This document shows, one piece after another, positions 1 through 31,914 of a stretch of DNA of 32,000 bases. The stretch spans positions 1,020,001-1,052,000 of the forward strand of contig NC_010085.1 of assembly GCF_000018465.1 (NCBI RefSeq), written 5' to 3'. Below the pieces are notes generated by a model. The model worked only from the letters and a program-made list of their open reading frames with translations, ran no database searches and had not been told where the DNA came from. How positions within the stretch are numbered: the first letter of the stretch is position 1; each line of letters starts with the position of its first letter. The translations under genes and the position numbers were made by a program. Source of the stretch: Nitrosopumilus maritimus SCM1. Its GTDB lineage: Archaea > Thermoproteota > Nitrososphaeria > Nitrososphaerales > Nitrosopumilaceae.

Positions 1-1
1 T

Positions 2-9731: not shown

Positions 9732-9745
9732 TTTACAAATGTAAA
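9732..9745. promoter_or_regulatory. Palindrome copy tttacaaatgtaaa (1 mismatch to TTTACAATTGTAAA)
   Basis: Intergenic, 94 nt upstream of the 9839 start. It directly follows a second perfect palindrome, AATTGTACAATT, at 9718..9729. Confidence 0.6.
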
Positions 9746-9838
9746 ATATTTCAAGTGTATTTTATCATTCAATTGCTTTATACAATTTTTTTGCTATATG
9801 TAAAGATCCTTTAAATCAATGAAAGTATTAACATATGC

Positions 9839-10519
9839 ATGACTAAAAAAATTCCTTCAGACAAAGAAATTTTAGATGATATGATAGATGTATTTGATCC
9901 TACATTACCAGTATTTACTCCGCTCTCTATTGTTTTAGCTGGCCTAGCTAGTCAAAAGTCTCCTTTACACGAAATTCCTGAACCTGACAAATGGAAAGAA
10001 AAGGCGAAAAGAGGATTGGGATTAACAGTTGTCAAACAAGGAAAGTTAACAGCTACTAGAGAAGGCAATTGTGTTGTAAGACGAGGAACTCACATTTTCA
10101 AGCACAGATTACATTCCATATGTGAGCCTCACAGTACTGTGATTATTGTTGAAAAATCATCTTCAGAACCTGCAGGAGGAGGAGCAACAATACTAGGAAG
10201 TGGAGGCAGTGTCACTACTGCAAATACCATTTACCGAGTTGCAAAATACGACATTGGTACATTATACAGATATGAGTTTAGAGTAACAATTAAAGTAAAA
10301 TTAACAGTGTGTCCAGGCCAAGAGCCAACAAGCAAAAAAGAAGTTGTTGGTGGAGGCTGGTTCTTGGCAGGTGTTGTCTCACAGTCTATTTGTAAAAGAG
10401 AAATCATCGCTGATGGAATTGACAACCCAAATGACGCTAAGAAAGTTGCAGATAATAGTGCACCTAAGGGTTCGGGCATTAAAAGATCTCATTCAGGTCT
10501 TGGCTTAAAAGATCAATGA
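9839..10519 (+). CDS. Hypothetical protein (226 aa, Gly-rich central segment, no clear signal peptide)
   Basis: Long clean ORF. The antisense ORF 10231..10479 is judged spurious. I recognise no family. Confidence 0.5.
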   Translation: MTKKIPSDKEILDDMIDVFDPTLPVFTPLSIVLAGLASQKSPLHEIPEPDKWKEKAKRGLGLTVVKQGKLTATREGNCVVRRGTHIFKHRLHSICEPHSTVIIVEKSSSEPAGGGATILGSGGSVTTANTIYRVAKYDIGTLYRYEFRVTIKVKLTVCPGQEPTSKKEVVGGGWFLAGVVSQSICKREIIADGIDNPNDAKKVADNSAPKGSGIKRSHSGLGLKDQ

Positions 10520-10564
10520 TCTAGTTTTACATTTATGAGAAGACAGTGTAATTTTACATAATCT

Positions 10565-10593
10565 CAATTAGATTGTGCAAATGAATCTAATTG
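10565..10593. terminator. Hairpin CAATTAGATT-(9 nt)-AATCTAATTG between convergent genes (possible bidirectional terminator)
   Basis: 10-bp perfect stem. An alternative 8-bp pairing is TTGTGCAA (10573) with TTGCACAA (10591). It overlaps the stop codon of the ZnuA-like gene. Confidence 0.3.
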
Positions 10594-11531
10594 CACAAAG
10601 CATCTTTCAAATTAATGAGATTATTATCCATTCTTTCCATAAAGGTGCCATCTTCATCTCCAAACTCTAACGGAGACAACATCAGTACTTTGCTGCCAAT
10701 CTCATCAGCAATTACTTGAGACATTTTTGGATTTACTCCCTCTTCAGTAAATATGACATTGGCATTCAAGATTCTTGCCAAATCAATTACTTCCTGAATA
10801 TCCTGCGGACTGGGTTCGCTTAGAGGATCAATTGACTTTAAGACAGTATGTTGATTCAATCCATATTCTTGGGCAAAATATGAAAATGCATCATGAAATG
10901 CAAAGAAATCTTTCTTGCTGCATTGCGCCAATTCATTTCTGATTTTTTTATCCATAGAATCAAGCTCAAGTTTGTATGCATCAGCGTTATTTTGATAATA
11001 AATTTTATTTTGAGGATCGAATTCTATTAGCGCATCAGCAATATTTTGCACTTGTGTTTTAATTGTTATTGGATTAAGCCAGATATGAGGATCTGTCGTA
11101 AGTTCTTTTGATTTTGCACTAATTTGCAATCGGTAATCGGATTCAATATAGATTGGGTCTATACCGTTGCTAGTATCGATTACATTTACATCAGAATTGA
11201 TTTCAGCAACATCATCAATCCAAGTTTCAAATCCAAGACCATTAATTATTATCAGATCTGTTTCTTGTATTCTTTGAAGATCTTTTACTTGCGGCTCCCA
11301 ATCATGAGGCTCCGCTCCAGGATTAACTAATAATGAAACATTCACTTTATCTTTGCCCACTTTTTTTGTAAACTCCTCAATGGGATAAAATGAGGCCAAT
11401 ACATTGATTTTTTGTATTTCTAAATCAGAGTCAGGTAGTTCTGCAGGAGAGTCAACATTCCATAAAGCAAACGACATAACAGGAACAATCACTCCAAATG
11501 CGACAAGTATTATTTTGATTTGATTATTCAC
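10587..11531 (-). CDS. Periplasmic-type metal (Zn/Mn-class) ABC substrate-binding protein, ZnuA/TroA family, with no adjacent permease or ATPase
   Basis: N-terminal membrane anchor. Family motifs are EPHDWEP, DPHIWLNP and FHDAFSYFAQEYGL. GTG start. Confidence 0.85.
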   Translation of the reverse strand: MNNQIKIILVAFGVIVPVMSFALWNVDSPAELPDSDLEIQKINVLASFYPIEEFTKKVGKDKVNVSLLVNPGAEPHDWEPQVKDLQRIQETDLIIINGLGFETWIDDVAEINSDVNVIDTSNGIDPIYIESDYRLQISAKSKELTTDPHIWLNPITIKTQVQNIADALIEFDPQNKIYYQNNADAYKLELDSMDKKIRNELAQCSKKDFFAFHDAFSYFAQEYGLNQHTVLKSIDPLSEPSPQDIQEVIDLARILNANVIFTEEGVNPKMSQVIADEIGSKVLMLSPLEFGDEDGTFMERMDNNLINLKDALCN

Positions 11532-11569
11532 CTTGATTCAATAAAAAATAACATATTTAATTACGAGAC

Positions 11570-11583
11570 ATTACATTTGTAAA
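11570..11583. promoter_or_regulatory. Palindrome copy attacatttgtaaa (2 mismatches)
   Basis: 39 nt upstream of the GTG start (11531) of the ZnuA-like gene. An AT-rich TATA-like stretch lies between them. Confidence 0.65.
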
Positions 11584-11641
11584 ATTCCATTACTAAAATA
11601 ACATCGTAGTTCATGGCGTCTTTTTTTCAAATATGAAATAA

Positions 11642-11776
11642 CTATTTTGTAGAGTTTGACTTTTGATGTAATTTACATTTTTTTGAATTTTTATGCCTTT
11701 GTTTGAAATATTTTTCACCCATAGAATAACCACATTCAGGACAAGTAATCTTTTTGATTTTTTTATATATCGCCAT
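11642..11776 (-). CDS. Possible small zinc-finger protein (44 aa), below the ORF-track cutoff
   Basis: Hand translation gives MAIYKKIKKITCPECGYSMGEKYFKQRHKNSKKCKLHQKSNSTK. The C-x2-C-x12-H-x5-C-x2-H spacing is C2H2/C2HC-like. The ORF is short and the region is AT-rich, so it could be a chance ORF. Confidence 0.3.
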   Translation of the reverse strand: MAIYKKIKKITCPECGYSMGEKYFKQRHKNSKKCKLHQKSNSTK

Positions 11777-11845: not shown

Positions 11846-13105
11846 CTAAATTCTCTTTTTGATTTGCCATACAACAACAGCAGGTGCTGCAATATACATT
11901 GCCAAGTTAAGTGCAATAACAGATATTCCCAATCCTAAAACTTCTGCTTCTGAACCATCTTCAGCCAATGTCATAATAGACAATGTTGAAATCATTGGTG
12001 TGATGAATGCTCGTACAGATTCTTTAAACATTGGGTTTTCTCGTTCCAGATCAGCAATTGTTGGTGAGAATGAATAATACAATTGGTTAAAACCAGTCAT
12101 AAAGGATGCACCAGATGCCGTACTCATTACAGTGTTATCTCGAATTTCTCTTAAGAATTGAACTTGTGGTGCCAGTTCTGTTCCATATGCTGCTGTTGCA
12201 ATCAAACACCCACCACCACTAGACTCTGCTTCATCAGATGTTGTTTCCATCACAGAATCATCTGCCATCATAGTTTCTTGTTCCATCATAGAGTCATCTT
12301 TCATCATGTCTTCTTCCATCATAGATTTTTGTGGAGGGATTTCTTCATAATCAATTTGAACGTCAACTACGAACTGATTTGTATTAAAAGTATGAACGGC
12401 TAGAGCATTTCCAGAAAAATCCCATTCGCCAGAAGAAGATTCTTGATCAACTAGGGTCAACTCAAATTTAGTCTTACCGTCAGGAGTCCAAATTTTTCCA
12501 GCAGTTTCATCAGATCCAAGTGGACCCCTCAAACTTACAAGTTGAATAGGTTCAGATGCATCATATCTTAATGTTCCAGCATAGGTATTCTCGCTTGGAG
12601 CCAACAAAATTGCTAGTTGATGCTCTTCATGGCCAACGCCAGGATCTTGCATTGATTCAAATCTGTCCCAACCAAACATTTCAGCCTTCATGGGTTGCTC
12701 CATCACATCATCCTCCTCTGCAGATACTTCTTGAACAATTATTGTTCCCAACATCCAAGGATGAACCATACAATAATAATCATATTCACCAACTTCATCT
12801 GGACTCCATTCAAATGAATTTCCAGTCATCAACAAACTACTATCAAAGATACCATCAGGTCCATCTTCAGGATTTCCTGAAGTGTATGTGTGTCCTGCAG
12901 TGTCAGTGTTTGACATGATTACAACACCGCCAACATCAACTGTTGCAGTACTTGGAATGTAACATCCATCTGCAGTTTTTTCACAACCAGGTGAGCCAGA
13001 ACCATCTGCAGGTACAACTGTAACTTCTGAATGATCTGCAAAAGCAGGAGATAAAGAAATGATACTAAACAACATTAAAACTGAAAAGATTGCTAGCGTT
13101 TTCAC
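11846..13105 (-). CDS. Exported type-1 (blue) copper protein, plastocyanin/cupredoxin domain, with a Met-rich acidic linker and a C-terminal Cys-box plus membrane-helix module
   Basis: Cupredoxin ligand block YYCMVHPWMLGTI plus an upstream GH. Linker MMEEDMMKDDSMMEQETMMADDSVME. C-terminal GGGCLIATAAYGTELAPQVQFLREIRDN followed by hydrophobic helices. I moved the start from 13210 to the GTG at 13105, which gives the signal peptide (M)KTLAIFSVLMLFSIISLSPAFA. The ORF-track N-terminus would contain the palindrome at 13158. Confidence 0.8.
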   Translation of the reverse strand: MKTLAIFSVLMLFSIISLSPAFADHSEVTVVPADGSGSPGCEKTADGCYIPSTATVDVGGVVIMSNTDTAGHTYTSGNPEDGPDGIFDSSLLMTGNSFEWSPDEVGEYDYYCMVHPWMLGTIIVQEVSAEEDDVMEQPMKAEMFGWDRFESMQDPGVGHEEHQLAILLAPSENTYAGTLRYDASEPIQLVSLRGPLGSDETAGKIWTPDGKTKFELTLVDQESSSGEWDFSGNALAVHTFNTNQFVVDVQIDYEEIPPQKSMMEEDMMKDDSMMEQETMMADDSVMETTSDEAESSGGGCLIATAAYGTELAPQVQFLREIRDNTVMSTASGASFMTGFNQLYYSFSPTIADLERENPMFKESVRAFITPMISTLSIMTLAEDGSEAEVLGLGISVIALNLAMYIAAPAVVVWQIKKRI

Positions 13106-13157: not shown

Positions 13158-13171
13158 TTTACATTTGTAAA
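13158..13171. promoter_or_regulatory. Palindrome copy tttacatttgtaaa (1 mismatch)
   Basis: 53 nt upstream of the revised GTG start (13105) of the blue copper protein. Confidence 0.65.
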
Positions 13172-13352: not shown

Positions 13353-13366
13353 TTTACAATTGTAAA
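13353..13366. promoter_or_regulatory. Palindrome copy tttacaattgtaaa (exact)
   Basis: Lies in the 355-bp gap between the blue copper gene and the 3' end of the ZIP gene. No convincing ORF lies next to it. Confidence 0.6.
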
Positions 13367-15813: not shown

Positions 15814-15839
15814 ATAAAGTTAGCCTAGGCTAACTTTAT
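15814..15839. promoter_or_regulatory. 26-bp perfect palindrome ATAAAGTTAGCCTAGGCTAACTTTAT, a putative DtxR-family operator
   Basis: Lies 23-48 nt upstream of the MCO start (15791) and just downstream of the DtxR-family gene. The TTAGC/GCTAA half-sites resemble the DtxR/IdeR box. TATTAGCT direct repeats follow at 15837 and 15856. Confidence 0.6.
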
Positions 15840-15936: not shown

Positions 15937-16431
15937 TCATTTGTTAAATAAAACAAGTAAATCAGGATTGGATTTTAGAAAAGTGGTAAATTTTCTTAGT
16001 TGTTTCATAGTTTTTGGGTTTATGTGATGCTCTATTCCCTCTGCATCCTTGTTTGCAATGGATCTATCCACTCCAATAATTTCAAAAAAGTTCAACAATT
16101 CACTGTGTTTTTGGCGTATGTCATTTGCAATACTGATTCCTTTGGCAGTTAGTTTTATTCCACGATACTTGGCATATTCCAGACAGCCAGCAGAATCTAA
16201 TTTCTGTAGCATTTTAGTTACGCTAGGTGGACGAACTCCCATATAGTTTGAAATGTCAGTAGGAGATGCGTGTCCTTTTAATTCAACCAATTCATAGATC
16301 ACTTCAAGATAGTCTTCCATAGTTGTAGTAAACGAATTTTTTTGGCTATGTGCTTTTTTGATTGATTCTAGTCTTTTTTCTTTTTTAACAGAAGGTTTCT
16401 CTTTTTGTTTGCCAGTCATTTTATTGCTCAC
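15937..16431 (-). CDS. DtxR/MntR-family metal-dependent transcriptional repressor
   Basis: MEDYLEVIYEL...ISNYMGVRPPSVTKMLQKL is a winged HTH, and the metal-site region includes EGIEHH. The Lys-rich 37-aa N-terminal extension may be an over-call. An alternative ATG lies at 16320. Confidence 0.85.
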   Translation of the reverse strand: MSNKMTGKQKEKPSVKKEKRLESIKKAHSQKNSFTTTMEDYLEVIYELVELKGHASPTDISNYMGVRPPSVTKMLQKLDSAGCLEYAKYRGIKLTAKGISIANDIRQKHSELLNFFEIIGVDRSIANKDAEGIEHHINPKTMKQLRKFTTFLKSNPDLLVLFNK

Positions 16432-16517: not shown

Positions 16518-16739
16518 TTAAACAACTAAGATTCCGCTGATAAAGTCAACAAAAGATATTATCACATGCTCAAAATCATGTAAGAAGAATTCTTCTTGAA
16601 AATTTTCATCATCCATATTATGGGAATGGGAATTCATAAGTTCCGGAGTTGCATGAGGATGAGCCTCAACCATAGAAACCATCCCAATAGCAAATACAAG
16701 AAGGAACAAAAATGTAGGGATAATTAAAGATTTCAACAT
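16518..16739 (-). CDS. Small exported His-rich protein (73 aa)
   Basis: Signal peptide ending VEA, then HPHATPELMNSHSHNMDD...HDFEH and a hydrophobic C-terminus. The palindrome lies 58 nt upstream. Confidence 0.45.
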   Translation of the reverse strand: MLKSLIIPTFLFLLVFAIGMVSMVEAHPHATPELMNSHSHNMDDENFQEEFFLHDFEHVIISFVDFISGILVV

Positions 16740-16796: not shown

Positions 16797-16810
16797 TTTA
16801 CAATTGTAAA
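16797..16810. promoter_or_regulatory. Palindrome copy tttacaattgtaaa (exact), shared by divergent genes
   Basis: 58 nt from the start of the His-rich peptide gene (16739, -) and 56 nt from the Kelch gene start (16866, +). Confidence 0.7.
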
Positions 16811-16865: not shown

Positions 16866-17891
16866 ATGAAAAAAATATCATTTTTCTTAATTCTGTTAAT
16901 TTTTCCTGTTTCAGATATTTTTGCAGAAGAAGATTCAGAAGGGTGGAAAAGATTGGCAGACATGCCAGAAGTAAGGTCAGAGATGGAATCAGCTGCAATT
17001 GATGAAAAGATCTATGTGGTGGGAGGCATAGCCAATACAAATCAAGTATCAAATTCTGTTTTTGTTTTTGATACCAAAGATGAATCATGGAGTACTGGAA
17101 CCCCAATGCCAATAGAATTACATCATGCTGGAACTGCAGCCCATGATGGGAAGCTGTATGTTGTTGGAGGATACATGAAAGGGTGGAGTCCATCAAACGC
17201 ATTACTAATTTATGATTCTGTCAAAGATTCTTGGAGTCAGGGCAAGGATATGCCAACTGCTCGCGGTGCACTGACTGCAGAATTTGTAGACGGCAAGCTG
17301 TATGCAGTTGGAGGATTCAATGAGAATTCCCGTACTGAAAATGAAGTGTATGATCCTGCAGACGACTCTTGGGAGAAAATGGCCCCAATGCCTACAGCCA
17401 GGGAACACCTAGCATCAGCAGTTCTAGACGGACAGTTGTTTGTCATTGGTGGCAGGGCAGGACAGGTAAATTCTGATGCAAACGAAATGTACGACTATAC
17501 CTCAGATACTTGGAAAATATTAGAACCACTTCCAACTGCAAGAAGTGGATTGGCTGCATCTGTTATTAGCGGAGCAGTTTTTGTTTTTGGGGGAGAAAGC
17601 TCACTAAGGACATTTGAAGAAAATGAAGCATACATTCCTGAAGAAGGATGGTTTGCACAGCAACCAATGCCAATACCAAGACATGGCTTAGCATCATCAA
17701 CTGTAGGGGACAACATCTATCTTATTGGCGGGGGAGTAGTTCCAGGTTTTAGCTTTAGTGGAATTACTGAAAAATATCACAACACAGTCGTTCCAGAATT
17801 CGGCGTCTTGTCAATTGTGATTTTGGGAATCTCAACTGTCATGATAATTTTGTTTACAAAGCCTAAATTTCAACACATCATTCAGCAATGA
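16866..17891 (+). CDS. Exported Kelch-repeat beta-propeller protein with a C-terminal membrane anchor
   Basis: Signal peptide. There are about six repeats of the Kelch pattern (G.(I/L)YV(V/I)GG ... W ... (M/L)P..R). A C-terminal transmembrane helix is present. Confidence 0.8.
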   Translation: MKKISFFLILLIFPVSDIFAEEDSEGWKRLADMPEVRSEMESAAIDEKIYVVGGIANTNQVSNSVFVFDTKDESWSTGTPMPIELHHAGTAAHDGKLYVVGGYMKGWSPSNALLIYDSVKDSWSQGKDMPTARGALTAEFVDGKLYAVGGFNENSRTENEVYDPADDSWEKMAPMPTAREHLASAVLDGQLFVIGGRAGQVNSDANEMYDYTSDTWKILEPLPTARSGLAASVISGAVFVFGGESSLRTFEENEAYIPEEGWFAQQPMPIPRHGLASSTVGDNIYLIGGGVVPGFSFSGITEKYHNTVVPEFGVLSIVILGISTVMIILFTKPKFQHIIQQ

Positions 17892-17920: not shown

Positions 17921-18316
17921 TTAGATAGTTGTAAAAGAAGAAATTTCAGAAGTGATTTTTTCTTCAGAAATTTCTCCAATGTATCTATATTCATATTCTG
18001 TGTTTAGTAACAATTCTGGAATTTTGACTATATGTCCAGTATGAGGAACAGAATCATGTGAGACAATCATTGAATTAGAAAAGCCATCTCCATTTAGAGC
18101 ATATTCAACTTCACAGACCACAGGGATTTCTGTTTGCGCATATACAACTACGCTATTCTCATGAACATCAATTGCCATAATCTGTTCAAAAGTCATTTCA
18201 GTTTGAACATGTGAATCAGAGTATACGGTAACTGGAGTCATCATGACAAAGACACTACCCAACATCAACAACATTATAAGTATTGTATTTTTCAAACAAT
18301 TTCCAACAGTTTTCAA
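17921..18316 (-). CDS. Hypothetical exported protein (131 aa)
   Basis: N-terminal signal/anchor and a beta-rich body. The palindrome lies 52 nt upstream. Confidence 0.5.
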   Translation of the reverse strand: MKTVGNCLKNTILIMLLMLGSVFVMMTPVTVYSDSHVQTEMTFEQIMAIDVHENSVVVYAQTEIPVVCEVEYALNGDGFSNSMIVSHDSVPHTGHIVKIPELLLNTEYEYRYIGEISEEKITSEISSFTTI

Positions 18317-18367: not shown

Positions 18368-18381
18368 TTTACAAATGTAAA
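18368..18381. promoter_or_regulatory. Palindrome copy tttacaaatgtaaa (1 mismatch)
   Basis: 52 nt upstream of the start at 18316 (-). Confidence 0.65.
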
Positions 18382-20146: not shown

Positions 20147-20160
20147 TTTACATTTGTAAA
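20147..20160. promoter_or_regulatory. Palindrome copy tttacatttgtaaa (1 mismatch)
   Basis: 76 nt upstream of the start of the spermidine-synthase-like gene (20071, -). Confidence 0.6.
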
Positions 20161-21848: not shown

Positions 21849-21862
21849 TTTACAATTGTAAA
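21849..21862. promoter_or_regulatory. Palindrome copy tttacaattgtaaa (exact)
   Basis: 42 nt upstream of the TTG start of the three-domain MCO (21807, -). A TATA-like attattatatg lies between them. Confidence 0.7.
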
Positions 21863-22518: not shown

Positions 22519-22532
22519 TTTACAATTGTAAA
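22519..22532. promoter_or_regulatory. Palindrome copy tttacaattgtaaa (exact)
   Basis: 56 nt upstream of Zn-ribbon paralog 1 (22588). Confidence 0.7.
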
Positions 22533-22587: not shown

Positions 22588-22794
22588 ATGAGTTGTAATG
22601 GGGTATGTCAAAGATACAAAGCAAAAAAGCCTAAAAACACAAGCAGGTATGAAGCAGGACAAAAAAGATGTAATATTTGTAACATGTATATGAATTGGGA
22701 AGGACTGTATTGCCCTTGTTGCAATATGAGAATTAGAGTTTCATCAAGATATTCAAAACTCAAAGAAAAACATCTTAAGATTCAGAGAATTTGA
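22588..22794 (+). CDS. Small six-Cys zinc-ribbon protein with a basic tail (paralog 1)
   Basis: CNGVC...RYEAGQKRCNICNMYM......CPCCNMRIRV. It is a paralog of 23897..24118. The exact palindrome lies 56 nt upstream. Confidence 0.55.
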   Translation: MSCNGVCQRYKAKKPKNTSRYEAGQKRCNICNMYMNWEGLYCPCCNMRIRVSSRYSKLKEKHLKIQRI

Positions 22795-23586: not shown

Positions 23587-23600
23587 CTTACAATTGTAAA
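23587..23600. promoter_or_regulatory. Palindrome copy cttacaattgtaaa (1 mismatch)
   Basis: 86 nt upstream of the YedZ-like gene start and immediately after the stop of the small membrane ORF. Confidence 0.6.
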
Positions 23601-23603: not shown

Positions 23604-23813
23604 TCAAGTAGTAAGTTCAGGTTTGATACTCCATACAATTGCCAACATTACAAACGGAATTGACATTATGCCAATTATTCCCAAGATAGTAAGAAAAGAC
23701 GATTCAGAAACATCAGGATTGTTAATTATCCACGGTAATGGTAATGAAATGATAAACCAAATCACTGCAAGCAAAATATACATTTTTGTTTTTTTATTTA
23801 GATTCAATATCAT
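23604..23813 (-). CDS. Small two-helix membrane protein (69 aa)
   Basis: Two hydrophobic helices. It lies 33 nt from the palindrome at 23846 and directly upstream of the YedZ-like gene. The antisense ORF 23623..23835 is judged spurious. Confidence 0.4.
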   Translation of the reverse strand: MILNLNKKTKMYILLAVIWFIISLPLPWIINNPDVSESSFLTILGIIGIMSIPFVMLAIVWSIKPELTT

Positions 23814-23845: not shown

Positions 23846-23859
23846 TTTACAATTGTAAC
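23846..23859. promoter_or_regulatory. Palindrome copy tttacaattgtaac (1 mismatch), shared by divergent genes
   Basis: 33 nt from the 23813 start (-) and 38 nt from the 23897 start (+). The conserved block GTTAAGTATCAAAA follows after 8 nt. Confidence 0.7.
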
Positions 23860-23896: not shown

Positions 23897-24118
23897 ATGG
23901 CAACCGTATGTAAAGGAATTTGTGTTAGATTTAGAGCGACAGGGTATGTAGGAAAGCACAGATATGAAAAGGGACAAAAAAGATGTCCGGTGTGCGAGAT
24001 ATTTATGACGTATCCAGAAGTAAGATGCCCCTGTTGTAGTATCAAACTAAGAGTTACACCTAGAGGAAACAAGGCTAGAAAGGAAATTCAGAAAAAAAGA
24101 AATTATGTTTGGCATTAA
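23897..24118 (+). CDS. Small six-Cys zinc-ribbon protein with a basic tail (paralog 2)
   Basis: CKGIC...RYEKGQKRCPVCEIFM......CPCCSIKLRV, with the same Cys spacing as 22588..22794. The palindrome lies 38 nt upstream. Confidence 0.55.
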   Translation: MATVCKGICVRFRATGYVGKHRYEKGQKRCPVCEIFMTYPEVRCPCCSIKLRVTPRGNKARKEIQKKRNYVWH

Positions 24119-24795
24119 TCCTGGAATCTATCAACAACTTCTTCAAACAACACTCTTGGAATTCCACCTTTGAAAACATGTTCCTCTCCTTTGAAATTGA
24201 CAATCTTGAATAAAGGAATTTTTTCAACGCCAAGACTATTTGTGTAATCAATATTAGATTGAATGTCTTGGCCATATTTTCCTGAATCTAAGCAGTTTGA
24301 AAACTGGTCTATATCCAAATCAAGTTCTAATGCAAAATTCTTTAATTGATCAGATTTTGCCCAAGTATCAATTTCTTGTTGCGACACGTATAGCATTTCC
24401 TGGTATTCTGAATACTTTTTTTGTTCGTCTGCACAAAAAGTAGCTTGAGATATTAAAATAGAATCATCTCCTAACGGGGAAACATCCAAAAATACAATGT
24501 TGGCTTTGTTTGTTTCAACAAGTTTTTCTGAGATTTCAGAATAGTTAGTATCATACCAATATTTACAAGAAGTGCATTGGTAGTCATTGAATGCAAAAAT
24601 TGTTACAGGAGCATCAGGATCACCGACTACAGGGGAAACTGACGGAGGTACACTGTTAAAATCATTATTTGAAAGAGTGTCTGAATCATTTTCCGGAGTA
24701 AATTTTTTGTCTATCTCAGGGGAAACCAAGCTGTGCAACAAAAATATGATTGCAATAATAATTGCACCTATGATAATTTTTTTGCTTAATTTCAT
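24115..24795 (-). CDS. DsbA-like thioredoxin-fold thiol:disulfide oxidoreductase (active site CTSC), membrane-anchored
   Basis: The pattern (V/I)TIFAFNDYQCTSCKYW is the classic DsbA-family context. N-terminal anchor. It starts 4 nt after the Met-rich gene, indicating an operon. Confidence 0.8.
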   Translation of the reverse strand: MKLSKKIIIGAIIIAIIFLLHSLVSPEIDKKFTPENDSDTLSNNDFNSVPPSVSPVVGDPDAPVTIFAFNDYQCTSCKYWYDTNYSEISEKLVETNKANIVFLDVSPLGDDSILISQATFCADEQKKYSEYQEMLYVSQQEIDTWAKSDQLKNFALELDLDIDQFSNCLDSGKYGQDIQSNIDYTNSLGVEKIPLFKIVNFKGEEHVFKGGIPRVLFEEVVDRFQD

Positions 24796-24799
24796 GATA

Positions 24800-25402
24800 T
24801 TAATTCATAGATTGCATCATTGGGTGATTAGACATAAGAACTTGCATTTCATCCATGTGGCTTTGCATCAGTTCTGTCATTTTCATATTAAATTCATCAT
24901 CTGTTAAATCCGAAGACAGTAATTCTTGCATTTCAGAGACATGTTTTGACATTATCTGAATCATTTCTTCCCTTGTTTCAGGATCTTGCATCATTTGCAT
25001 CATCATTTCCTGATTCATCATCATGCCTTGTCCCATCATATCTGAATTCATCATTTGATCATTATCCATCATGGATTTCATCATGTTTTGGTTTTGCATC
25101 ATCATATCCATCATCTGTGGTCGCATCTGAGGATCGTTCATCATTCTATCCATCATAGGTCCCATCATCATTTCCATGTGTTGAGGGTCATTAAGCATCA
25201 TATCGTGTATCTCATTCATTGTTTCAGGATCATTCATCATATTTCCCATCCATTGATTCATTAATTGAGGATCATTCATCATTTGGTTTTGCATGGGCAT
25301 ATTTCCAGTCATCATGGAATTAGCGGAAATTCCCAATCCCACAAGTAAACCTACTAAAAATACCCCTACAGTAATTCCTATCCATAAAGTTTGGTTAGCC
25401 AT
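24800..25402 (-). CDS. Membrane-anchored methionine-rich protein (56 Met in 200 aa) with MMNDP(Q/E) repeats
   Basis: N-terminal transmembrane helix, then a low-complexity M/N/D/Q/P region with QMMNDPQLM, NMMNDPETM, DMMLNDPQHM, RMMNDPQMR and QMMQDPETR. The exact palindrome lies 40 nt upstream. Confidence 0.7.
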   Translation of the reverse strand: MANQTLWIGITVGVFLVGLLVGLGISANSMMTGNMPMQNQMMNDPQLMNQWMGNMMNDPETMNEIHDMMLNDPQHMEMMMGPMMDRMMNDPQMRPQMMDMMMQNQNMMKSMMDNDQMMNSDMMGQGMMMNQEMMMQMMQDPETREEMIQIMSKHVSEMQELLSSDLTDDEFNMKMTELMQSHMDEMQVLMSNHPMMQSMN

Positions 25403-25441: not shown

Positions 25442-25455
25442 TTTACAATTGTAAA
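25442..25455. promoter_or_regulatory. Palindrome copy tttacaattgtaaa (exact)
   Basis: 40 nt upstream of the Met-rich protein start (25402, -). Confidence 0.7.
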
Positions 25456-25477: not shown

Positions 25478-25526
25478 AATATTTTGAAGGAGGTGTGCTA
25501 GAGGCAAAAGTCTCCTTCAAAATATT
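25478..25526. repeat. 15-bp perfect inverted repeat AATATTTTGAAGGAG ... CTCCTTCAAAATATT with a 19-nt spacer
   Basis: The arms at 25478..25492 and 25512..25526 are exact reverse complements. It lies in a divergent promoter region where no gene ends. Confidence 0.6.
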
Positions 25527-25600: not shown

Positions 25601-25614
25601 TTTACACTTGTAAA
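25601..25614. promoter_or_regulatory. Palindrome copy tttacacttgtaaa (1 mismatch)
   Basis: Distal member of a tandem pair (36-bp spacing) upstream of the cupredoxin gene at 25689. Confidence 0.6.
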
Positions 25615-25636: not shown

Positions 25637-25650
25637 ATTACGATTGTAAA
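25637..25650. promoter_or_regulatory. Palindrome copy attacgattgtaaa (2 mismatches)
   Basis: 39 nt upstream of the TTG start of the cupredoxin (25689). Confidence 0.6.
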
Positions 25651-25688: not shown

Positions 25689-26150
25689 TTGAGTACTCCA
25701 ACTTCTAGTCATGCTTATGGTATTGGGTTAATTACATTGCTTGTTGGGTTGTCAGCATCTGTAGTCTTTTACACTTCATTTTATCTTCCCGAATCTTTAG
25801 CAAAACCGTCTGTCTCTGAGAATATATTGGAACCTGAAAAAGAATTAATCATAGAAATTGTTCCAGGAGCAGTAATAGAAGGAAATGAAAGCTATGTTCC
25901 AAACAAAGCAACTGCACTACTTACAATAAACAACAAAGTGATTTGGAAAAATAATGACGATACTGCACACACTGTAACTCCTGATCATAGATATACAGAT
26001 GGATTTAGCGGAGAATTTGGTTCTACAGGAGTTTTAAAGCCAGGTGATACGTACGAGTTCTTATTTACAGAAGAACAAGAAATACCATATCATTGCCAAC
26101 CACATCCTTGGATGAAAGGAAAAATTTCAGTGGAGAAAAGCAGATTCTAA
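25689..26150 (+). CDS. Membrane-anchored cupredoxin (plastocyanin/amicyanin-like blue copper protein)
   Basis: Type-1 Cu ligands: DTAHTV (His) and YHCQPHPWMKGKI (Cys, His, Met). N-terminal transmembrane helix. TTG start. Confidence 0.8.
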   Translation: MSTPTSSHAYGIGLITLLVGLSASVVFYTSFYLPESLAKPSVSENILEPEKELIIEIVPGAVIEGNESYVPNKATALLTINNKVIWKNNDDTAHTVTPDHRYTDGFSGEFGSTGVLKPGDTYEFLFTEEQEIPYHCQPHPWMKGKISVEKSRF

Positions 26151-26167: not shown

Positions 26168-26240
26168 GTATAGAAAATAAGTATGTTAATTTTTTATAAA
26201 AAATGTTGTTTTTTAGAATTTTAAAATCAGAGGCAGTCAA

Positions 26241-26942: not shown

Positions 26943-26956
26943 CTTACAATTGTAAA
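26943..26956. promoter_or_regulatory. Palindrome copy cttacaattgtaaa (1 mismatch)
   Basis: 39 nt upstream of the CcdA-like gene start (26995). GTTAAGTATCAAAA follows after 8 nt. Confidence 0.7.
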
Positions 26957-26994: not shown

Positions 26995-27993
26995 ATGTCA
27001 ACGGTGGTAATTGCAAAAAAATCAATGGTAATAATTTCATTTGCATTATTTTCATTAATCTTTCTTGGAATAATTTTTTCGCTTGGAACAAATTTTACAA
27101 TAGAAGGTAAAGAACACACAACATACCTCTCATGGATAGTAATTGCATATGTTGCAGGATTGTCCATGATTGTTCTTCCATGTACACTGCCACTGGTATT
27201 CATCATAGTTCCACTAAGTATGGGACAAGGGTACAAGAAAGGATTAGCCATGGCATTACTTTTTGGTCTAGGACTAGTCATTACAATTGCATCTTATGGA
27301 ATTGCAATTGCAGGAATTGGGCAAAGTGCATCACTAGACCAAGCATCAACTATCATGTTCTTAATTGCAGGAATTGCGGCATTTGTCTTTGGATTATCAC
27401 AACTAAAAATTATTTCATTAAAGCTACCATCGTATTCAGGAACTCCAAAGTTTATCCAGAACAGAGGAGAATATACAAAATCATTTTTCATGGGATTACT
27501 ATTAGGAAATGCAGGAGTTGGATGCCCCAATCCGTTGTTTTACTGGCTACTAATCTACATTGCAGGAACAGGCAGTATCGAAGTCGGAGCTTCATTAGGA
27601 GTAGTTCACGGAGTTGGAAGGGCAATTCCCCTAATTTTGATGTCAGTTCTTGCAGTAATTGGAATCAATGCAACAAAGAGTTTGACTCTAAAACGAGAAT
27701 CAATTGAGCGAGCATCAGGATGGATGCTAATAGTGATTGGGGCATTTTTGATAATCAACGGACTGCCAGAGGGACACGAATGGTACGAAGAACTATTCAT
27801 CCATCAAGGATGGAATCAACTCGTTGAGATGACAGGAATACCAGCAGAATTTGAGATGGACGAACATACACATGACCACGGACATGTAGAAGGAAGAGAT
27901 TTCAAAGTATTTTACACAGCTTTGTTAGCGGTATTGGTATTGAGTCCGTTGTTCATACGTTCAGTTAGAAAAATCAGGGAGGTGAATGCATGA
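26995..27993 (+). CDS. CcdA/DsbD-family transmembrane thiol:disulfide electron transporter with a His-rich C-terminal loop
   Basis: Membrane-embedded Cys motifs LPCTLPL and GCPNPLF are typical of the DsbD_2/CcdA family. C-terminal EMDEHTHDHGHVEG is followed by a last transmembrane helix. Confidence 0.8.
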   Translation: MSTVVIAKKSMVIISFALFSLIFLGIIFSLGTNFTIEGKEHTTYLSWIVIAYVAGLSMIVLPCTLPLVFIIVPLSMGQGYKKGLAMALLFGLGLVITIASYGIAIAGIGQSASLDQASTIMFLIAGIAAFVFGLSQLKIISLKLPSYSGTPKFIQNRGEYTKSFFMGLLLGNAGVGCPNPLFYWLLIYIAGTGSIEVGASLGVVHGVGRAIPLILMSVLAVIGINATKSLTLKRESIERASGWMLIVIGAFLIINGLPEGHEWYEELFIHQGWNQLVEMTGIPAEFEMDEHTHDHGHVEGRDFKVFYTALLAVLVLSPLFIRSVRKIREVNA

Positions 27994-28130
27994 AAGATCC
28001 TGTATGTGGAATGGAGATTGAAGAAAAAGGAGAAGTTTTTTCTTACAATGGAAAAGATTATCGTTTTTGTTGTGCCAGCTGTAAATGGGCATTTGAAAAT
28101 AATCCAGAGCAATTTGAAAATGAATCATAA
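27990..28130 (+). CDS. YHS/TRASH-domain small metal-binding protein (46 aa; not in the ORF track)
   Basis: Hand translation gives MKDPVCGMEIEEKGEVFSYNGKDYRFCCASCKWAFENNPEQFENES, a textbook YHS pattern (DPVCGM...Y.FC...C...F). Its ATG overlaps the CcdA stop as ATGA. Confidence 0.7.
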   Translation: MKDPVCGMEIEEKGEVFSYNGKDYRFCCASCKWAFENNPEQFENES

Positions 28131-28350
28131 GATAGAAATTCTAACAACGCCATCTTGTGGAAATTGCAAAGTGGTAGAGGCAATGCTAGATGAAATGAAT
28201 ATAAAATACACAGTAATTGACGTCACAGAAAAACCAGAATACTTGGAAAAGTATCCAATATTTACTGCACCCGGAGTTGTAATTGACGACAAGCTTGTAT
28301 TTACAGGAATTCCAAAAAAACACGAATTACTTGAAAAACTATCTGCATAG
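28120..28350 (+). CDS. Small thioredoxin/glutaredoxin-like protein (active site CGNC, 76 aa)
   Basis: MNHKIEILTTPSCGNCKVVEAML...APGVVID is a Grx/Trx-like fold. The track ORF 28006..28350 is over-extended at its 5' end. The internal ATG at 28120 overlaps the YHS gene by 11 nt. Confidence 0.7.
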   Translation: MNHKIEILTTPSCGNCKVVEAMLDEMNIKYTVIDVTEKPEYLEKYPIFTAPGVVIDDKLVFTGIPKKHELLEKLSA

Positions 28351-28464: not shown

Positions 28465-29598
28465 TTATGATCCAGGCCTTGGTTCAAGAGTAAGAACGAC
28501 ATTAATTGCCTTACCATCTCTAATGATTCCCAAATCTAGTGTGTCGCCAACATTTTTCTCACGTTGCAAATGTGTTAAAAGATCATCAATTTTTCTTACT
28601 TCCTTTCCATCAATGGATAAAATAATATCTCCACCTATAGTATACTCAATTTCATCATACACTGCAGTTTCAGATGAGCCTCTAAGGCCTGCTTTATTGG
28701 CAGGACTGTCTTTTACAACTGTCATAACTAAAACACCTTTTGCATCTTCGAGATTCAATAGTTCTGCAAGATCAGGGGTAATGTTTGCACTAGAAATTCC
28801 AACCCAAGGATGATGAAATTCCCCATCCGTAATCAAAACAGGGACAATTTTTAAAATAACATTTGATGGAATTGAAAATCCAACACCTGAAAAGCTACCA
28901 TCACTTGAATAAATTGCAGTGTTTACCCCAACTACTTCGCCTTTCATATTCAATAGTGGTCCTCCCGAATTTCCTGGATTGATTGCAGTATCTGTCTGGA
29001 TTACATCAGGAATGGAAAATCCAACACCTGTAGGCAACAATCGTCCTAATTGACTCACAATTCCAGAAGTCATAGAGCCTGACAATCCAAAGGGATTACC
29101 TATTGCAGTTATTTGCTCTCCTACTTTGAGATTAGAGGAATCACCTATTGGTAGAGGGTAAAGTTTTTCAGAATTTACATCAATTTTGAGTACTGCGATA
29201 TCTGCATAAGGATCAGTTCCTACAACTTTTGCACGATAAGATGTTCCGTCAGTAAAAGTTACATCAATTTTCTTACTATCCCTTACCACATGATTGTTTG
29301 TTATGATGTGACCCTCCTTGTCAAAAATAAATCCAGAGCCAACACCACTAGCATCTCCATGAGGGGATGTTTTTGTAACTGCAATACTTACTACACCAAA
29401 TTCTGAGCGTTCAAATATTTCAACAAGTGAAAGGTCAGAAGAGGATTCAACATTAGATTGAAGATTCTCAGAGGAGTAGGAATTGTCTTGTGCAAGTACA
29501 GGTGACAGAAACGCAACAGACAGCCCCAACATCAAAACAACGCTAAAGACTACTCCTCCAAGCAAAATTTTTGAATTATTTCTAAACAAGCAATGCAC
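28465..29598 (-). CDS. HtrA/DegP-family serine protease with a C-terminal PDZ domain, exported
   Basis: Catalytic motifs TNNHV, DIAVLK and GNSGGPLL are present. A PDZ-like C-terminus, a signal anchor and a GTG start complete the picture. Confidence 0.9.
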   Translation of the reverse strand: MHCLFRNNSKILLGGVVFSVVLMLGLSVAFLSPVLAQDNSYSSENLQSNVESSSDLSLVEIFERSEFGVVSIAVTKTSPHGDASGVGSGFIFDKEGHIITNNHVVRDSKKIDVTFTDGTSYRAKVVGTDPYADIAVLKIDVNSEKLYPLPIGDSSNLKVGEQITAIGNPFGLSGSMTSGIVSQLGRLLPTGVGFSIPDVIQTDTAINPGNSGGPLLNMKGEVVGVNTAIYSSDGSFSGVGFSIPSNVILKIVPVLITDGEFHHPWVGISSANITPDLAELLNLEDAKGVLVMTVVKDSPANKAGLRGSSETAVYDEIEYTIGGDIILSIDGKEVRKIDDLLTHLQREKNVGDTLDLGIIRDGKAINVVLTLEPRPGS

Positions 29599-29643: not shown

Positions 29644-29657
29644 TTTACAATTGTAAA
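29644..29657. promoter_or_regulatory. Palindrome copy tttacaattgtaaa (exact)
   Basis: 46 nt upstream of the HtrA start (29598, -) and 2 nt after the stop of the Lrp-TRASH regulator gene. Confidence 0.7.
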
Positions 29658-29658
29658 A

Positions 29659-30102
29659 TTAATTTTCTTCTCTTGCTTTTTCTATGAGAGATTGAATACG
29701 TCCATTGTTTTTTTCTTTGTATTGAGTTTTGCAGGTGTTGCAACAAAAAAATCTCTCAAAATTTGCAAATTTGTAAACATGAGGTTTTTGTCCAACAGGA
29801 CCCTCACAGAAATCACATTTGAGTTTTACAGACATTCCAGATTCTAAAGAAACATCATGATGACCATCAGAATGACAACTGCACGTTTCAATTTTTTCTT
29901 TGTGGTCGCTATCAAGATTTGATGAATCAATAATAGGAGAAATGGATTTTATTAAACCAATATTAACCAGTCTTTGATATCTTGCCTGAATTGTAGGAGT
30001 ACTAATGTCCAGTTCACGTGAGATTTGTCTAAAGGACTTTCTTCCATCTTCCTGCAAAGACTGGATTATTCCAATATCTACTTCATCTAATTCATGAGGC
30101 AT
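29659..30102 (-). CDS. Lrp/AsnC-type HTH + TRASH-domain transcriptional regulator (CopR-like putative metal sensor)
   Basis: The N-terminal IGIIQSLQEDGRKSFRQISRELDISTPTIQARYQRLVNIGLI is an AsnC-type HTH. A Cys/His linker CSCHSDGHH follows. The C-terminal CDFC-x20-CCNTC matches the TRASH pattern C-x2-C-x19-22-C-x3-C. Confidence 0.8.
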   Translation of the reverse strand: MPHELDEVDIGIIQSLQEDGRKSFRQISRELDISTPTIQARYQRLVNIGLIKSISPIIDSSNLDSDHKEKIETCSCHSDGHHDVSLESGMSVKLKCDFCEGPVGQKPHVYKFANFERFFCCNTCKTQYKEKNNGRIQSLIEKAREEN

Positions 30103-30140: not shown

Positions 30141-30154
30141 TTTACAATTGTAAA
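30141..30154. promoter_or_regulatory. Palindrome copy tttacaattgtaaa (exact) in the regulator's own promoter
   Basis: 39 nt upstream of the ATG of the Lrp-TRASH regulator (30102, -). A TATA-like cataaatatgg lies between them. Confidence 0.7.
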
Positions 30155-30212: not shown

Positions 30213-31010
30213 TTACCTGTTTAATTGCCCGTCAATGACTCTCTGAAATGTAGAGTATGGCTGAGCCCCAGATATAGGAGTAAATCCGATATCTGCATTT
30301 CCTACAAAGAATCCAGGAGTTCCAGAGACACCATACGTGCGCCCATCATTGAGATCATTTTGAACCTCCTCAATGTATTTTCCTGAATCCAAACAAGAAT
30401 CAAACTCGATAGAATCAAGACCCAGTTCTGATGCATATTGCTTGTAAAGTGTAACAGATTGAGCAACAGGCAGGTCTTTCCAAATTTGTTGGTCTTCAAA
30501 AATCATGTCATGCATCTCCCAGAACTTTCCTTGATCATCAGCGCATTCAGATGCCAGTGCTGCAGGAACAGCATTTGGATGAATGTTTTGAATTGGGAAA
30601 TCTCTGTAAACAAAGTTCACTTTTCCTGTTTGGATATAGTTTTGCTCTATTAGTGGAAGTGTTGTCTCATGAAATTTTGCGCAAAATGGGCACTGGAAAT
30701 CAGAGAATTCAACTATGGTAATTGATGCGTTTGGATTTCCCTTCATAGGATCATCATCAAAAGAGATGTTTCTAATAATCTGAGGCCCAAATTGTTGTTG
30801 AGAAGCAGTACTTGGTTGCAGGTTTGGAACAGATTCCCTTATGACAACTTCTTTTGGCTCAGCAGTCTCTCCACCAATTACATAACCTCCCAAAAATGCA
30901 GAAACGATAGATACTGCAACAATTGCCACAATTAGCCGATTAAATGTGGATTTGCTTACAGAGATTTCTTTGTCTGGTTTTTGATCCTCAATGAATTCAA
31001 AATCTTCCAC
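30213..31010 (-). CDS. DsbA-like thioredoxin-fold thiol:disulfide oxidoreductase (active site CPFC), membrane-anchored
   Basis: ITIVEFSDFQCPFCAKFH and GTPGFFV. It has a transmembrane helix after an acidic N-terminus and a GTG start. Confidence 0.85.
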   Translation of the reverse strand: MEDFEFIEDQKPDKEISVSKSTFNRLIVAIVAVSIVSAFLGGYVIGGETAEPKEVVIRESVPNLQPSTASQQQFGPQIIRNISFDDDPMKGNPNASITIVEFSDFQCPFCAKFHETTLPLIEQNYIQTGKVNFVYRDFPIQNIHPNAVPAALASECADDQGKFWEMHDMIFEDQQIWKDLPVAQSVTLYKQYASELGLDSIEFDSCLDSGKYIEEVQNDLNDGRTYGVSGTPGFFVGNADIGFTPISGAQPYSTFQRVIDGQLNR

Positions 31011-31047
31011 ACAACATGTAATTTCTCAAGAAATATAATAACAGGTC

Positions 31048-31061
31048 TTTACAATTGTAAG
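31048..31061. promoter_or_regulatory. Palindrome copy tttacaattgtaag (1 mismatch)
   Basis: 38 nt upstream of the GTG start of the DsbA-like gene (31010, -). Confidence 0.65.
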
Positions 31062-31124
31062 GAATATCAGAATTTTAAAAAAAATAACACATATCAAGAA
31101 ATGTACAGAATAAATCAGATAATT

Positions 31125-31814
31125 CTAATTTTTGGCCCAACCACGCTGAATTAGCTTTTCCGCAGTATTGGAACTAACACAAGCAGGACTGTTATCTGTA
31201 GTTTTGAGTACCAATTGCAAATTTTCTTTGCATAAAATGTCATCAGGTAAAATACCACTTGCAACTTGTTTTAGGGGCGCCAGGTCTGAAGCAGGAGGAT
31301 CTACGTTAACATCTGATTCCAAATTATCGTTTTCCAATTTTTCTATGATTTGTACTACTAGAAATTCATAAACTAATGTTTCCACATCATTTGTGATTAA
31401 AACAAGTTTGTATTTTCCAGGAAGCTCATTAAAGAAGAATGTTTGAGGAAGTTGCCATTCACTGTGTGAAGTTGAAGGAGCTATACCTGTTTCTTTGGTA
31501 GTTGTCTTCCAGAGAACGCTGTCCCTGTATACGTTGATCATATCAGGGATTGTTCCATTCCCACCTATTCCATAAAAAGTTCCCAGATCAACAACAGGTA
31601 ATTTGGTATCAGGATCCTCAAAAATTCCAACAGAGCTGTCCACTACACTAAATATGCTCACGGATTGAGGTACAAATGTTTCATCACACAGTATGTTTTT
31701 TGTATTATTCATATTGATGCATTCATCATGTGCTGGCGAATCATCTGCAAATGATTTTTCAACATCAATTGTTAAAAGAAAAATTAGTGGAAGAATTATC
31801 CAAATTAGTTTCAT
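31125..31814 (-). CDS. Hypothetical exported protein (229 aa)
   Basis: Clear signal peptide (MKLIWIILPLIFLLTIDVEKSFA). No family recognised. The palindrome lies 58 nt upstream. Confidence 0.5.
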   Translation of the reverse strand: MKLIWIILPLIFLLTIDVEKSFADDSPAHDECINMNNTKNILCDETFVPQSVSIFSVVDSSVGIFEDPDTKLPVVDLGTFYGIGGNGTIPDMINVYRDSVLWKTTTKETGIAPSTSHSEWQLPQTFFFNELPGKYKLVLITNDVETLVYEFLVVQIIEKLENDNLESDVNVDPPASDLAPLKQVASGILPDDILCKENLQLVLKTTDNSPACVSSNTAEKLIQRGWAKN

Positions 31815-31871
31815 TGTAGATATGAAATTAAAATCATAAATAAATCTAATTGAAAAATTGGTAGTATCGTC

Positions 31872-31885
31872 ATTACAATTGTAAA
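31872..31885. promoter_or_regulatory. Palindrome copy attacaattgtaaa (1 mismatch)
   Basis: 58 nt upstream of the start at 31814 (-). Confidence 0.65.
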
Positions 31886-31900
31886 ATTAATTTTTTTCAT

Positions 31901-31914
31901 TTTACAGTTGTAAA
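31901..31914. promoter_or_regulatory. Palindrome copy tttacagttgtaaa (1 mismatch)
   Basis: 42 nt upstream of the ATG at 31956 (+) and 29 bp from the copy at 31872. The two copies sit back to back and serve divergent genes. Confidence 0.65.

Follow-up and report, generated by a model that had tools for sequence, protein, structure and literature searches.

The window analysed here is a stretch of 32,000 nt from Nitrosopumilus maritimus SCM1 (contig NC_010085.1, positions 1,020,001 to 1,052,000; window coordinates are used below), with a G+C content of 34.8%. Between 9.7 and 32 kb, in an island of genes for copper handling and envelope thiol-redox functions, a 14-bp palindrome, TTTACAATTGTAAA, recurs in front of one transcription unit after another. 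Judged from the DNA and the proteins it encodes, the palindrome is probably the operator of a CopR-like (CopT, CopY) copper sensor encoded at 29659–30102 on the minus strand, and is predicted to drive about 19 promoters. A previous interpretation of the same DNA from its letters alone (the sequence-only reading) had proposed that the palindrome is the operator of a dimeric protein and defines one regulon joining copper and metal handling to extracytoplasmic thiol-redox and folding functions. This proposal is supported because the palindrome is conserved before orthologous genes, is nearly absent from coding DNA, and is absent from housekeeping promoters. The regulator next to HtrA, which had been named as an Lrp-TRASH regulator and only as a target, is the strongest candidate for reading the palindrome.

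Seven exact copies of TTTACAATTGTAAA are present in the window, against none in 100 dinucleotide shuffles, and 22 copies are found when up to two mismatches are allowed, where 0.79 is expected. Twenty of these make up the reliable set (seven exact, 11 with one mismatch, and two with two mismatches), all within 9.7–32 kb; number and positions of the exact copies reproduce those given by the sequence-only reading, and every one of its 11 single-mismatch and two double-mismatch copies was recovered. The remaining two matches, which it did not list, have two mismatches each: one at 7465 (CTTACAATTGAAAA) is inside a coding open reading frame (ORF) in the housekeeping part of the window, and the other at 26212 (TTTAGAATTTTAAA), 15 nt before the DsbA2 start, is probably merely the AT-rich box of the DsbA2 promoter. 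Two copies that had been called weak, at 21873 (GTCACATTTGTAAA, three mismatches, facing ORF 21992–22363 on the plus strand) and at 26154 (CTGTCATTTGTAAA, four mismatches), are there as sequence but amount to half-sites only. With a position weight matrix (PWM) trained on the same 20 sites that it scores, the distribution is bimodal, the 20 sites scoring 16.9–24.0 bits and the next best position in the window 12.3. As had been noted, mismatches fall on position 1 or 14 and on the central AATT; the half-sites TTACA/TGTAA are invariant over the 20 sites, save for one G at 25637. A weak extension of the form A-Y-(14-mer)-R-T can be seen, with the core written as TTTACAWWTGTAAA, and the flanks beyond ±2 nt hold no information content. 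The palindrome is thus not part of a longer repeat, and a miniature inverted-repeat transposable element (MITE) is ruled out on the same ground.

The intergenic DNA between 9701 and 32000, 3,166 nt in all, holds the full set of 20 sites; none occurs in the approximately 19 kb of island coding DNA or in positions 1–9700; both placements had been claimed before. For the site at 13158 to be intergenic, the blue copper protein must start at the GTG at 13105, a corrected start that brings with it a good signal peptide. Measured from the proximal edge of the site, the start codon is 37–45 nt away for 10 genes and 51–57 nt away for six, the earlier figures for these being right to within 1 nt, and 75–93 nt away for three more. 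When the window and related loci were combined into an aggregate of 242 oriented site-gene pairs, the gap between site and start peaked sharply at 37–38 nt, with the start codon at +38/+39; G-T follows the site at +1/+2, and a TATA-like TTAAATAT occupies +10 to +17. The TATA-like box that had been placed between site and start is thus confirmed, at a fixed position. In the housekeeping promoters of the window, the TATA-to-ATG distance is equal and the palindrome is absent. Because this geometry is the same in promoters with and without the site, transcripts would be expected to begin at or just before the ATG, i.e., to be near-leaderless, and the palindrome would then lie at about −53 to −40, directly against the B recognition element (BRE). 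The palindrome is not a generic promoter element, because the housekeeping promoters share the TATA-ATG geometry without it.

Conservation beyond the window had been left as a check, and the palindrome proves to be kept before orthologous genes in many thaumarchaeal species. The window regulator is 99% identical to its homologue in the Marine Group I thaumarchaeote SCGC RSA3 / AAA799-D11. At 13 genome loci of other species (68–77% regulator identity), the palindrome stands before the same orthologues, and unrelated flanking genes are without it. A metagenome scan added 80 loci with a regulator identity of 51–78%, and the non-redundant set comprises 78 loci and 569 kb. It contains 67 exact and 99 one-mismatch copies, compared with none and about one, respectively, in first-order Markov resamples; 193 of 197 PWM sites in non-redundant loci are non-coding. 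Counting a site when it lay no more than 120 nt upstream, orthologues with a site numbered 34/34 for CcdA, 11/13 for both DsbA3 and ZnrB, 57/73 for the regulator, 14/18 for the Met-rich protein, and 10/14 for HtrA, against 46/361 for all other genes. The most constant targets are the ccdA-YHS-trx operon and the regulator gene, and the site-to-start distances are conserved in a gene-family-specific manner. The cultured Nitrosopumilus adriaticus NF5 (CP011070.1, 178.5–198.8 kb) has the same island with 12 sites. Among those "other" site-bearing genes that were scanned with Pfam are P1B ATPases, BNR/sortilin-like proteins, a YNCE-type propeller, YtkA-like and SurA-like proteins, a rhodanese, and one TFB paralogue. 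The BNR/sortilin-like, i.e., sialidase-like, genes occur at four loci (our numbering: L013, 11908–12873; L031, 3125–4051; L050, 9520–10443; L054, 6452–7354); the copper-limitation-induced cluster of Nitrososphaera viennensis includes a "sialidase" (PMC7785015).

The candidate reader is a protein of 147 amino acids with an AsnC-type winged helix-turn-helix (HTH; PF13404, 5.5e-13; PF13412, 1.8e-12; residues 5–52) and a TRASH domain (PF08394 Arc_trans_TRASH, 2.2e-08; residues 94–132), in which C96, C99, C120, C121, and C124 are conserved. An AlphaFold2 (AF2) model with a mean confidence (pLDDT) of 77 has a confident HTH (7–47), TRASH domain, and C-terminal helix, joined through a low-confidence, disordered Cys/His-rich linker of about 35 residues (approximately 55–92). 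A sequence search of the PDB gave Lrp/AsnC HTH domains as the best matches and did not find a solved CopR-like protein. The regulator's own promoter has an exact site at 30141–30154, 38 nt upstream of the start, and among 60 distinct orthologous loci, 48 have a palindrome 30–46 nt before the start, at identities as low as 51%. Where the regulator lacks a site of its own, it can be the third gene of a ccdA operon whose head bears the site (L084), or adjoin a site-bearing copA (L087). The HTH segment DGRKSFRQISRE..STPTV.ARY.RLVN.GLIK is near-invariant across lineages, matching the invariant half-site.

Linkage to copA itself is found in the more distant relatives. In loci with 51–69% regulator identity (L077, L050, L053, L043, L087, and about six more), the regulator has as its neighbour a P1B ATPase (E1-E2_ATPase with HMA or YHS), mostly in divergent orientation, and the palindrome precedes the start of the ATPase by 37–40 nt. 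The archaeal cop cluster has the same canonical copR-copA arrangement (PMC7830388). At L077, regulator and ATPase are divergent and a single palindrome is 38–40 nt from both start codons, and L050 and L061 have two sites 43 bp apart. Pfam scans found copA (P1B ATPase) neither in the window nor in approximately 5.5 kb to its right, and in the marine loci L007–L019 the regulator has no adjacent P1B copper ATPase.

Sites occur in few pairs, a spacing of 43–44 bp recurring at divergent promoters, and phased multi-site arrays of the kind expected for an Lrp octamer were not seen in the spacing analysis. Because paired sites are rare and phased arrays absent, a simple dimer at each site accounts for the pattern better than an Lrp-type octamer does. 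Under the mechanism that we favour, a regulator dimer would sit on the palindrome, ending 9 nt before the 8-bp TATA box, with the start codon about 20 nt past the box. Loaded with copper through its TRASH domain, the regulator would most likely help recruit TFB/TBP, that is, activate, so that about 19 promoters in a 23-kb block, its own included, would fire together. The products would serve copper binding, oxidation, and buffering (the 3-domain multicopper oxidase, cupredoxins, and Met-rich protein), together with a YedZ-like reductase, and thiol-redox repair (three DsbA proteins, the CcdA-YHS-Trx reducing pathway, and HtrA). The predicted outcome is a copper-driven response that protects the envelope and matures its proteins.

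Several observations weigh against this interpretation, and its weakest step is the sign of regulation. The regulator's own site directly adjoins the TATA box in copA-type lineages, 30–34 nt from the ATG, which suggests that the regulator gene is repressed there. In N. viennensis, it is copper limitation and not excess that raises the expression of DsbD-family genes and of copA2, a gene clustered with CopT (PMC7785015). The structure of the protein is a second concern: Pfam gave no match to PF01037 (RAM) in the 147-amino-acid window regulator, whereas the characterised CopR proteins possess this domain, as do its relatives of 195–215 amino acids, in which it lies between HTH and TRASH, and dimerisation and signal transfer are unexplained because only the HTH, the disordered linker, and TRASH are modelled. 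The spacing of the half-sites is also 1 bp off that of the Pyrococcus furiosus CopR motif. Three loci with a conserved HTH and 52–54% regulator identity, L081 and L100 (12.4 kb each) and L098 (48% G+C), contain no palindrome in the retrieved DNA, and some lineages may have a different operator or none. Autoregulation through the putative site at 30141 is only suggestive, because a site would be retained at every conserved member of the regulon. Finally, the regulator gene or a neighbouring gene of the island served to retrieve every comparison locus, so that the co-occurrence of site and regulator is partly built in.

The doubt about sign leads to the alternative that comes closest, in which the same protein acts on the same site with reversed logic, either as a repressor released by copper or as an inducer at copper limitation for copper acquisition and cuproprotein maturation. 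The expression of N. viennensis fits such a scheme, for in addition to DsbD-family genes and copA2, its multicopper oxidases are up at copper limitation (PMC7785015). The regulon has plausible uptake and maturation parts in its ZnuA-like protein, YedZ-like reductase, cupredoxins, and Met-rich protein, and the geometry of the regulator's own site in copA-type lineages is typical of repression. It is an established rule, however, that archaeal activators bind upstream of BRE/TATA, and at nearly all targets the site is wholly upstream of these elements, as it is for CopR at copA. Moreover, the characterised CopR proteins activate a copper exporter at copper excess (PMC7830388), and HtrA, DsbA, and CcdA-Trx resemble the bacterial copper-stress repair sets Scs and DsbRS-dsbDEG. 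We judge reversed logic to be possible but rather unlikely.

A different protein might read the palindrome: either of two small Cys-rich proteins, ZnrA and ZnrB, or a CopY/BlaI-family repressor encoded elsewhere. ZnrA (22588–22794) and ZnrB (23897–24118) are site-bearing paralogues with 39% identity, eight conserved Cys, and a basic tail; at 68 and 73 amino acids, respectively, they share the pattern C-x3-C ... C-x2-C ... C-P-C-C. Neither has a Pfam or NCBIfam family, and the AF2 model of Znr (pLDDT 64) is too poor for a fold search. A word-indexed search recovered eight Znr homologues, and homologues were found only in marine Nitrosopumilus-type loci, none lying within ±6 kb of the distant copA-type palindromes; Znr was accordingly rejected as the reader. 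The case for a CopY-type repressor is the sequence itself, since the operators of copB and yahC, read by CopR in Lactococcus lactis, contain the identical TTTACAATTGTAAA and belong to a copper-responsive regulon. The Gram-positive CopY/CopR cop box is KACANNTGTA (O'Brien et al. 2020, PMC7253601), and its core is fitted by TACRNNTGTA in 20/20 sites here (TACANNTGTA in 19, TACGNNTGTA at 25637). The extended cop box RNYKACANNYGTMRNY, with outer R...Y, is not matched; the outer positions are instead Y and R, in 16/20 sites each. Pfam scans of 44 window ORFs turned up no Penicillinase_R/CopY-family domain of the kind in the BlaI/MecI-type CopY, and the archaeal site is upstream of TATA and not over a −35/−10 promoter. 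Given the absence of a CopY-family protein from the window and the inverted outer positions, the CopY/BlaI reader was rejected and the identity with the cop box is best read as convergence. Any reader other than the HTH-TRASH regulator is, in our estimation, improbable.

Less probable still is that the palindrome is a generic promoter, repeat, or mobile element or, in the alternative offered by the sequence-only reading, a special promoter element for a paralogous TFB/TBP. A fixed distance from TATA would suit such an element, and a TFB paralogue with TFIIB repeats and a Zn ribbon, found in a Nitrosarchaeum metagenome-assembled genome (L017, 11727–12659, minus strand), has a palindrome 37 nt upstream. 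The BRE is directional, however, whereas this palindrome is perfect; an ordinary TATA box follows it, at the TATA-ATG distance of site-free housekeeping promoters, and one copy can serve two divergent promoters. The TFB/TBP alternative is hence unsupported, and the L017 gene may instead mean that in this species a general-factor paralogue is part of the regulon. The uninformative flanks argue against a repeat, and the small share of unrelated neighbouring genes with a site (46/361, even when copA, SurA-like, YtkA-like, and BNR genes are included) against a generic element. As to a mobile element, a crude background check found the 16-mer TTTACAATTGTAAAGT 53 times in 2.9 million viral contigs, nearly always once per contig.

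The DtxR/MntR-like regulator (15937–16431), although encoded in the island and perhaps co-transcribed from the promoter of site 16797, is hardly credible as the reader and was rejected, as it has a conserved palindrome of its own and no DtxR homologue was found in the 13 genome loci carrying TTTACA sites. That separate palindrome is a perfect one of 22 bp, AAAGTTAGCCTAGGCTAACTTT (15816–15837; box denoted GTTAGCCTAGGCTAAC), with an iron-box-like core, and lies between the DtxR/MntR-like gene and the operon for the 2-domain multicopper oxidase and ZIP transporter. Its 16-mer core recurs before the orthologous operon in L010 (4328–4343) and L016 (153–168), making three species with the window. 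The 14-mer has no resemblance to the iron-box-like palindrome of about 19 bp of DtxR/IdeR. The other island regulator is thus accounted for, and with two types of palindrome the island holds at least two regulons. It also follows that the earlier statement that nearly every transcription unit carries the 14-bp palindrome holds overall but not for the DtxR, 2-domain multicopper oxidase, and ZIP block.

The individual sites are assigned to their genes as follows; the previous labels of the genes agree with Pfam and NCBIfam. Those labels comprise a ZnuA-like protein, a plastocyanin-like blue copper protein, a ZIP transporter, 2-domain and 3-domain multicopper oxidases, the DtxR/MntR-like regulator, a Kelch protein, a membrane spermidine-synthase-like protein, a ferric-reductase/YedZ-like protein, three DsbA-like proteins, a cupredoxin, CcdA/DsbD_TM, a 46-amino-acid YHS/TRASH protein, thioredoxin, HtrA, and the AsnC-HTH plus TRASH regulator. 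The class with distances of 37–45 nt begins with the site at 11570–11583 (ATTACATTTGTAAA, two mismatches), 38 nt upstream of the ZnuA-like gene (10587–11531, minus strand), and the exact site at 21849–21862, 41 nt upstream of the 3-domain multicopper oxidase (20200–21807, minus). The site at 23846–23859 (TTTACAATTGTAAC) is shared by a divergent pair, a membrane peptide (23604–23813, minus) and ZnrB (plus, 37 nt). An exact site at 25442–25455 precedes the operon for the Met-rich protein and DsbA1 (24115–25402, minus) by 39 nt, and that at 25637–25650 (ATTACGATTGTAAA, two mismatches) is 38 nt upstream of the cupredoxin gene (25689–26150, plus). The most conserved target, the ccdA-YHS-thioredoxin operon (26995–28350, plus), has its site at 26943–26956 (CTTACAATTGTAAA), 38 nt upstream; the YHS/TRASH protein is encoded inside this operon (27990–28130, plus). 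HtrA (28465–29598, minus) has an exact site 45 nt upstream, at 29644–29657, which begins 1 nt past the stop codon of the regulator. Besides the regulator's own, the class is completed by the sites at 31048–31061 (TTTACAATTGTAAG), 37 nt upstream of DsbA3 (30213–31010, minus), and at 31901–31914 (TTTACAGTTGTAAA), 41 nt upstream of a small ORF that starts at 31956 (plus; 35 amino acids in L001).

Sites at 51–57 nt are those at 13158–13171 (TTTACATTTGTAAA), 52 nt upstream of the blue copper gene (11846–13105, minus); at 16797–16810 (exact), between the divergent genes for a His-rich peptide (16518–16739, minus, 57 nt) and the Kelch protein (16866–17891, plus, 55 nt); at 18368–18381 (TTTACAAATGTAAA), 51 nt upstream of ORF 17921–18316 (minus); at 22519–22532 (exact), 55 nt upstream of ZnrA (plus); and at 31872–31885 (ATTACAATTGTAAA), 57 nt upstream of an exported ORF (31125–31814, minus). 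The longest distances are 93 nt, from the site at 9732–9745 (TTTACAAATGTAAA, one mismatch, 20.3 bits) to ORF 9839–10519 (plus); 75 nt, from 20147–20160 (TTTACATTTGTAAA) to the membrane spermidine-synthase-like gene (18395–20071, minus); and 85 nt, from 23587–23600 (CTTACAATTGTAAA) to the YedZ/ferric-reductase-like gene (22803–23501, minus), for which 76–96 nt separate site and start in other species. No ORF lies at the usual distance from the exact site at 13353–13366, which may belong to the blue copper promoter region as a second, more distal site or else be an orphan promoter. The site at 25601–25614 (TTTACACTTGTAAA) is the distal of two for the cupredoxin gene (74 nt). Both this site, on its leftward face, and 13353 are accompanied by TATA-like boxes with no ORF at the usual distance that way, and no conserved small ORF was found behind either; long 5' leaders, non-coding RNAs, or auxiliary sites may be involved.

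Some features of the island's surroundings can be added. Positions 1–9700 encode FolD, 5-FTHF cyclo-ligase, PurD, a class I aminoacyl-tRNA synthetase, a ferritin-like protein, succinyl-CoA-ligase-like subunits, and a zinc-ribbon protein with weak resemblance to L40e. They are followed by tRNA-Val(CAC) at 9515–9613, the only match to known RNA families in the window, which probably contains an intron because it is 99 nt long; it is the exact left edge of the site-bearing island, the first site (9732) being 119 nt further on. Extending the window leftward for further control DNA yielded almost nothing new. To the right, contigs with an identical regulator protein show that the island continues for about 1 kb beyond the window end, up to a fourth DsbA-like gene preceded by two directly adjacent sites offset by 15 nt (L001 4565–4593, approximately window 32,906–32,934), which mark the island's right edge; site-free genes, including TrmB-like and ArsR-type regulators, come after it. 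The Met-rich protein (24800–25402, minus) is membrane-anchored, consists of 28% Met (56/200 residues), and has no family match. Between its promoter and that of the cupredoxin, a hairpin, GAAGGAG-N19-CTCCTTC, with T/A runs on its flanks (25486–25518), looks like a bidirectional terminator-like structure.

The energy metabolism of ammonia-oxidising archaea (AOA) runs on copper enzymes. How their cop genes are regulated "remains an open question" (Reyes et al. 2020, PMC7785015). Full-text literature searches returned no description of the motif or regulon in AOA, although Qin et al. (2018), on copper stress in N. maritimus and reportedly with a model of the regulatory network, may mention it; nor did they find a paper joining Nitrosopumilus, TRASH, and copper regulation, or TACAATTGTA with archaea. 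A keyword search (copper, disulfide, protease) of a paper on the H2O2 proteome found no island-type proteins among the H2O2-responsive ones. In its widest form, our proposal is that marine AOA have rewired a minimal, RAM-less CopR-type sensor to control a copper-triggered envelope stress and maturation response of at least 20 promoters, as a simple dimer on a single 14-bp BRE-adjacent site; this we put forward tentatively, as plausible but short of probable. If true, it would be an archaeal counterpart of the Cpx/Scs-type envelope responses and a master switch of the copper economy rather than the guard of one efflux pump. It would also be a natural example of a one-promoter metal-resistance switch growing into a large envelope regulon, and of a CopR-type regulator functioning in the absence of the Lrp oligomerisation domain. 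The analysis supplies a sharply defined putative operator, a named candidate sensor, and a list of putatively co-regulated genes, many of which are of unknown function (the Kelch and Met-rich proteins, the His-rich peptide, Znr, the YedZ-like reductase, and the membrane spermidine-synthase-like protein). As cultured strains such as N. adriaticus NF5 have the same layout, copper regulation becomes directly testable in a globally important group.

Among known systems, a copper-limitation motif of N. viennensis, TTCSGSMTTTGWACYANT, located 35–70 nt upstream of starts (Reyes et al. 2020, PMC7785015), likewise belongs to an ammonia-oxidising archaeon with copper-related targets, including DsbD, multicopper oxidase, and sialidase/BNR-like genes. 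It differs in sequence, is not a palindrome of this type, and has no regulator assigned to it. The likeness to bacterial envelope systems is one of analogy only. In Salmonella, copper induces the DsbD/CcdA-like and DsbA/DsbG-like proteins of ScsABCD, and Pseudomonas aeruginosa has a copper-induced envelope thiol-redox system, DsbRS-dsbDEG (bioRxiv 10.1101/2020.08.17.255257). In these bacteria, control is by two-component or Cpx regulators with different operators.

The archaeal relatives are closer. The cop cluster, consisting of copR/copT, copA, and a TRASH chaperone, is described for Sulfolobus/Saccharolobus, Thermococcus, Ferroplasma, and Halobacterium (Ettema 2006, as cited in PMC7830388). 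The distant thaumarchaeal loci with regulator and P1B ATPase resemble it, and in the window the slot of the TRASH metallochaperone (CopM/CopT; PMC7830388) is occupied by the 46-amino-acid YHS/TRASH protein. In the window's marine lineage, by contrast, ccdA-YHS-trx replaces the ATPase as the neighbour, and the regulon would extend to about 19 promoters. The closest known system is the archaeal CopR regulon. P. furiosus CopR (PF0739) binds TTNNCAWWWTGNNAA directly upstream of the BRE, is an activator of copA, and also occupies its own promoter (Gruenberger et al. 2021, PMC7830388). Both proteins have an AsnC-type HTH and a TRASH domain, and both motifs are AT-centred palindromes with half-sites TTNNCA/TGNNAA, the site here reading TTNNCAWWTGNNAA; in both, the motif is directly upstream of the BRE at almost all target promoters, one site lies at the regulator's own promoter, and the targets, which here are predicted ones, are many, as for a "global" copper regulator. 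The two differ in that the site here has 14 bp with a centre of 2 nt (WW), compared with 15 bp and 3 nt (WWW), and that the window regulator has 147 amino acids and no RAM domain, so that the octameric wrap-around model may not apply. Here, too, paired sites are few, phased arrays and a nearby copA are missing, the motif is far more sharply conserved, and the predicted targets are genes for exported thiol-redox proteins, a protease, and cuproproteins. Most likely, then, this is a regulator of a type known from other archaea, present in N. maritimus as a variant without RAM, with a 14-bp site and a much larger envelope regulon.

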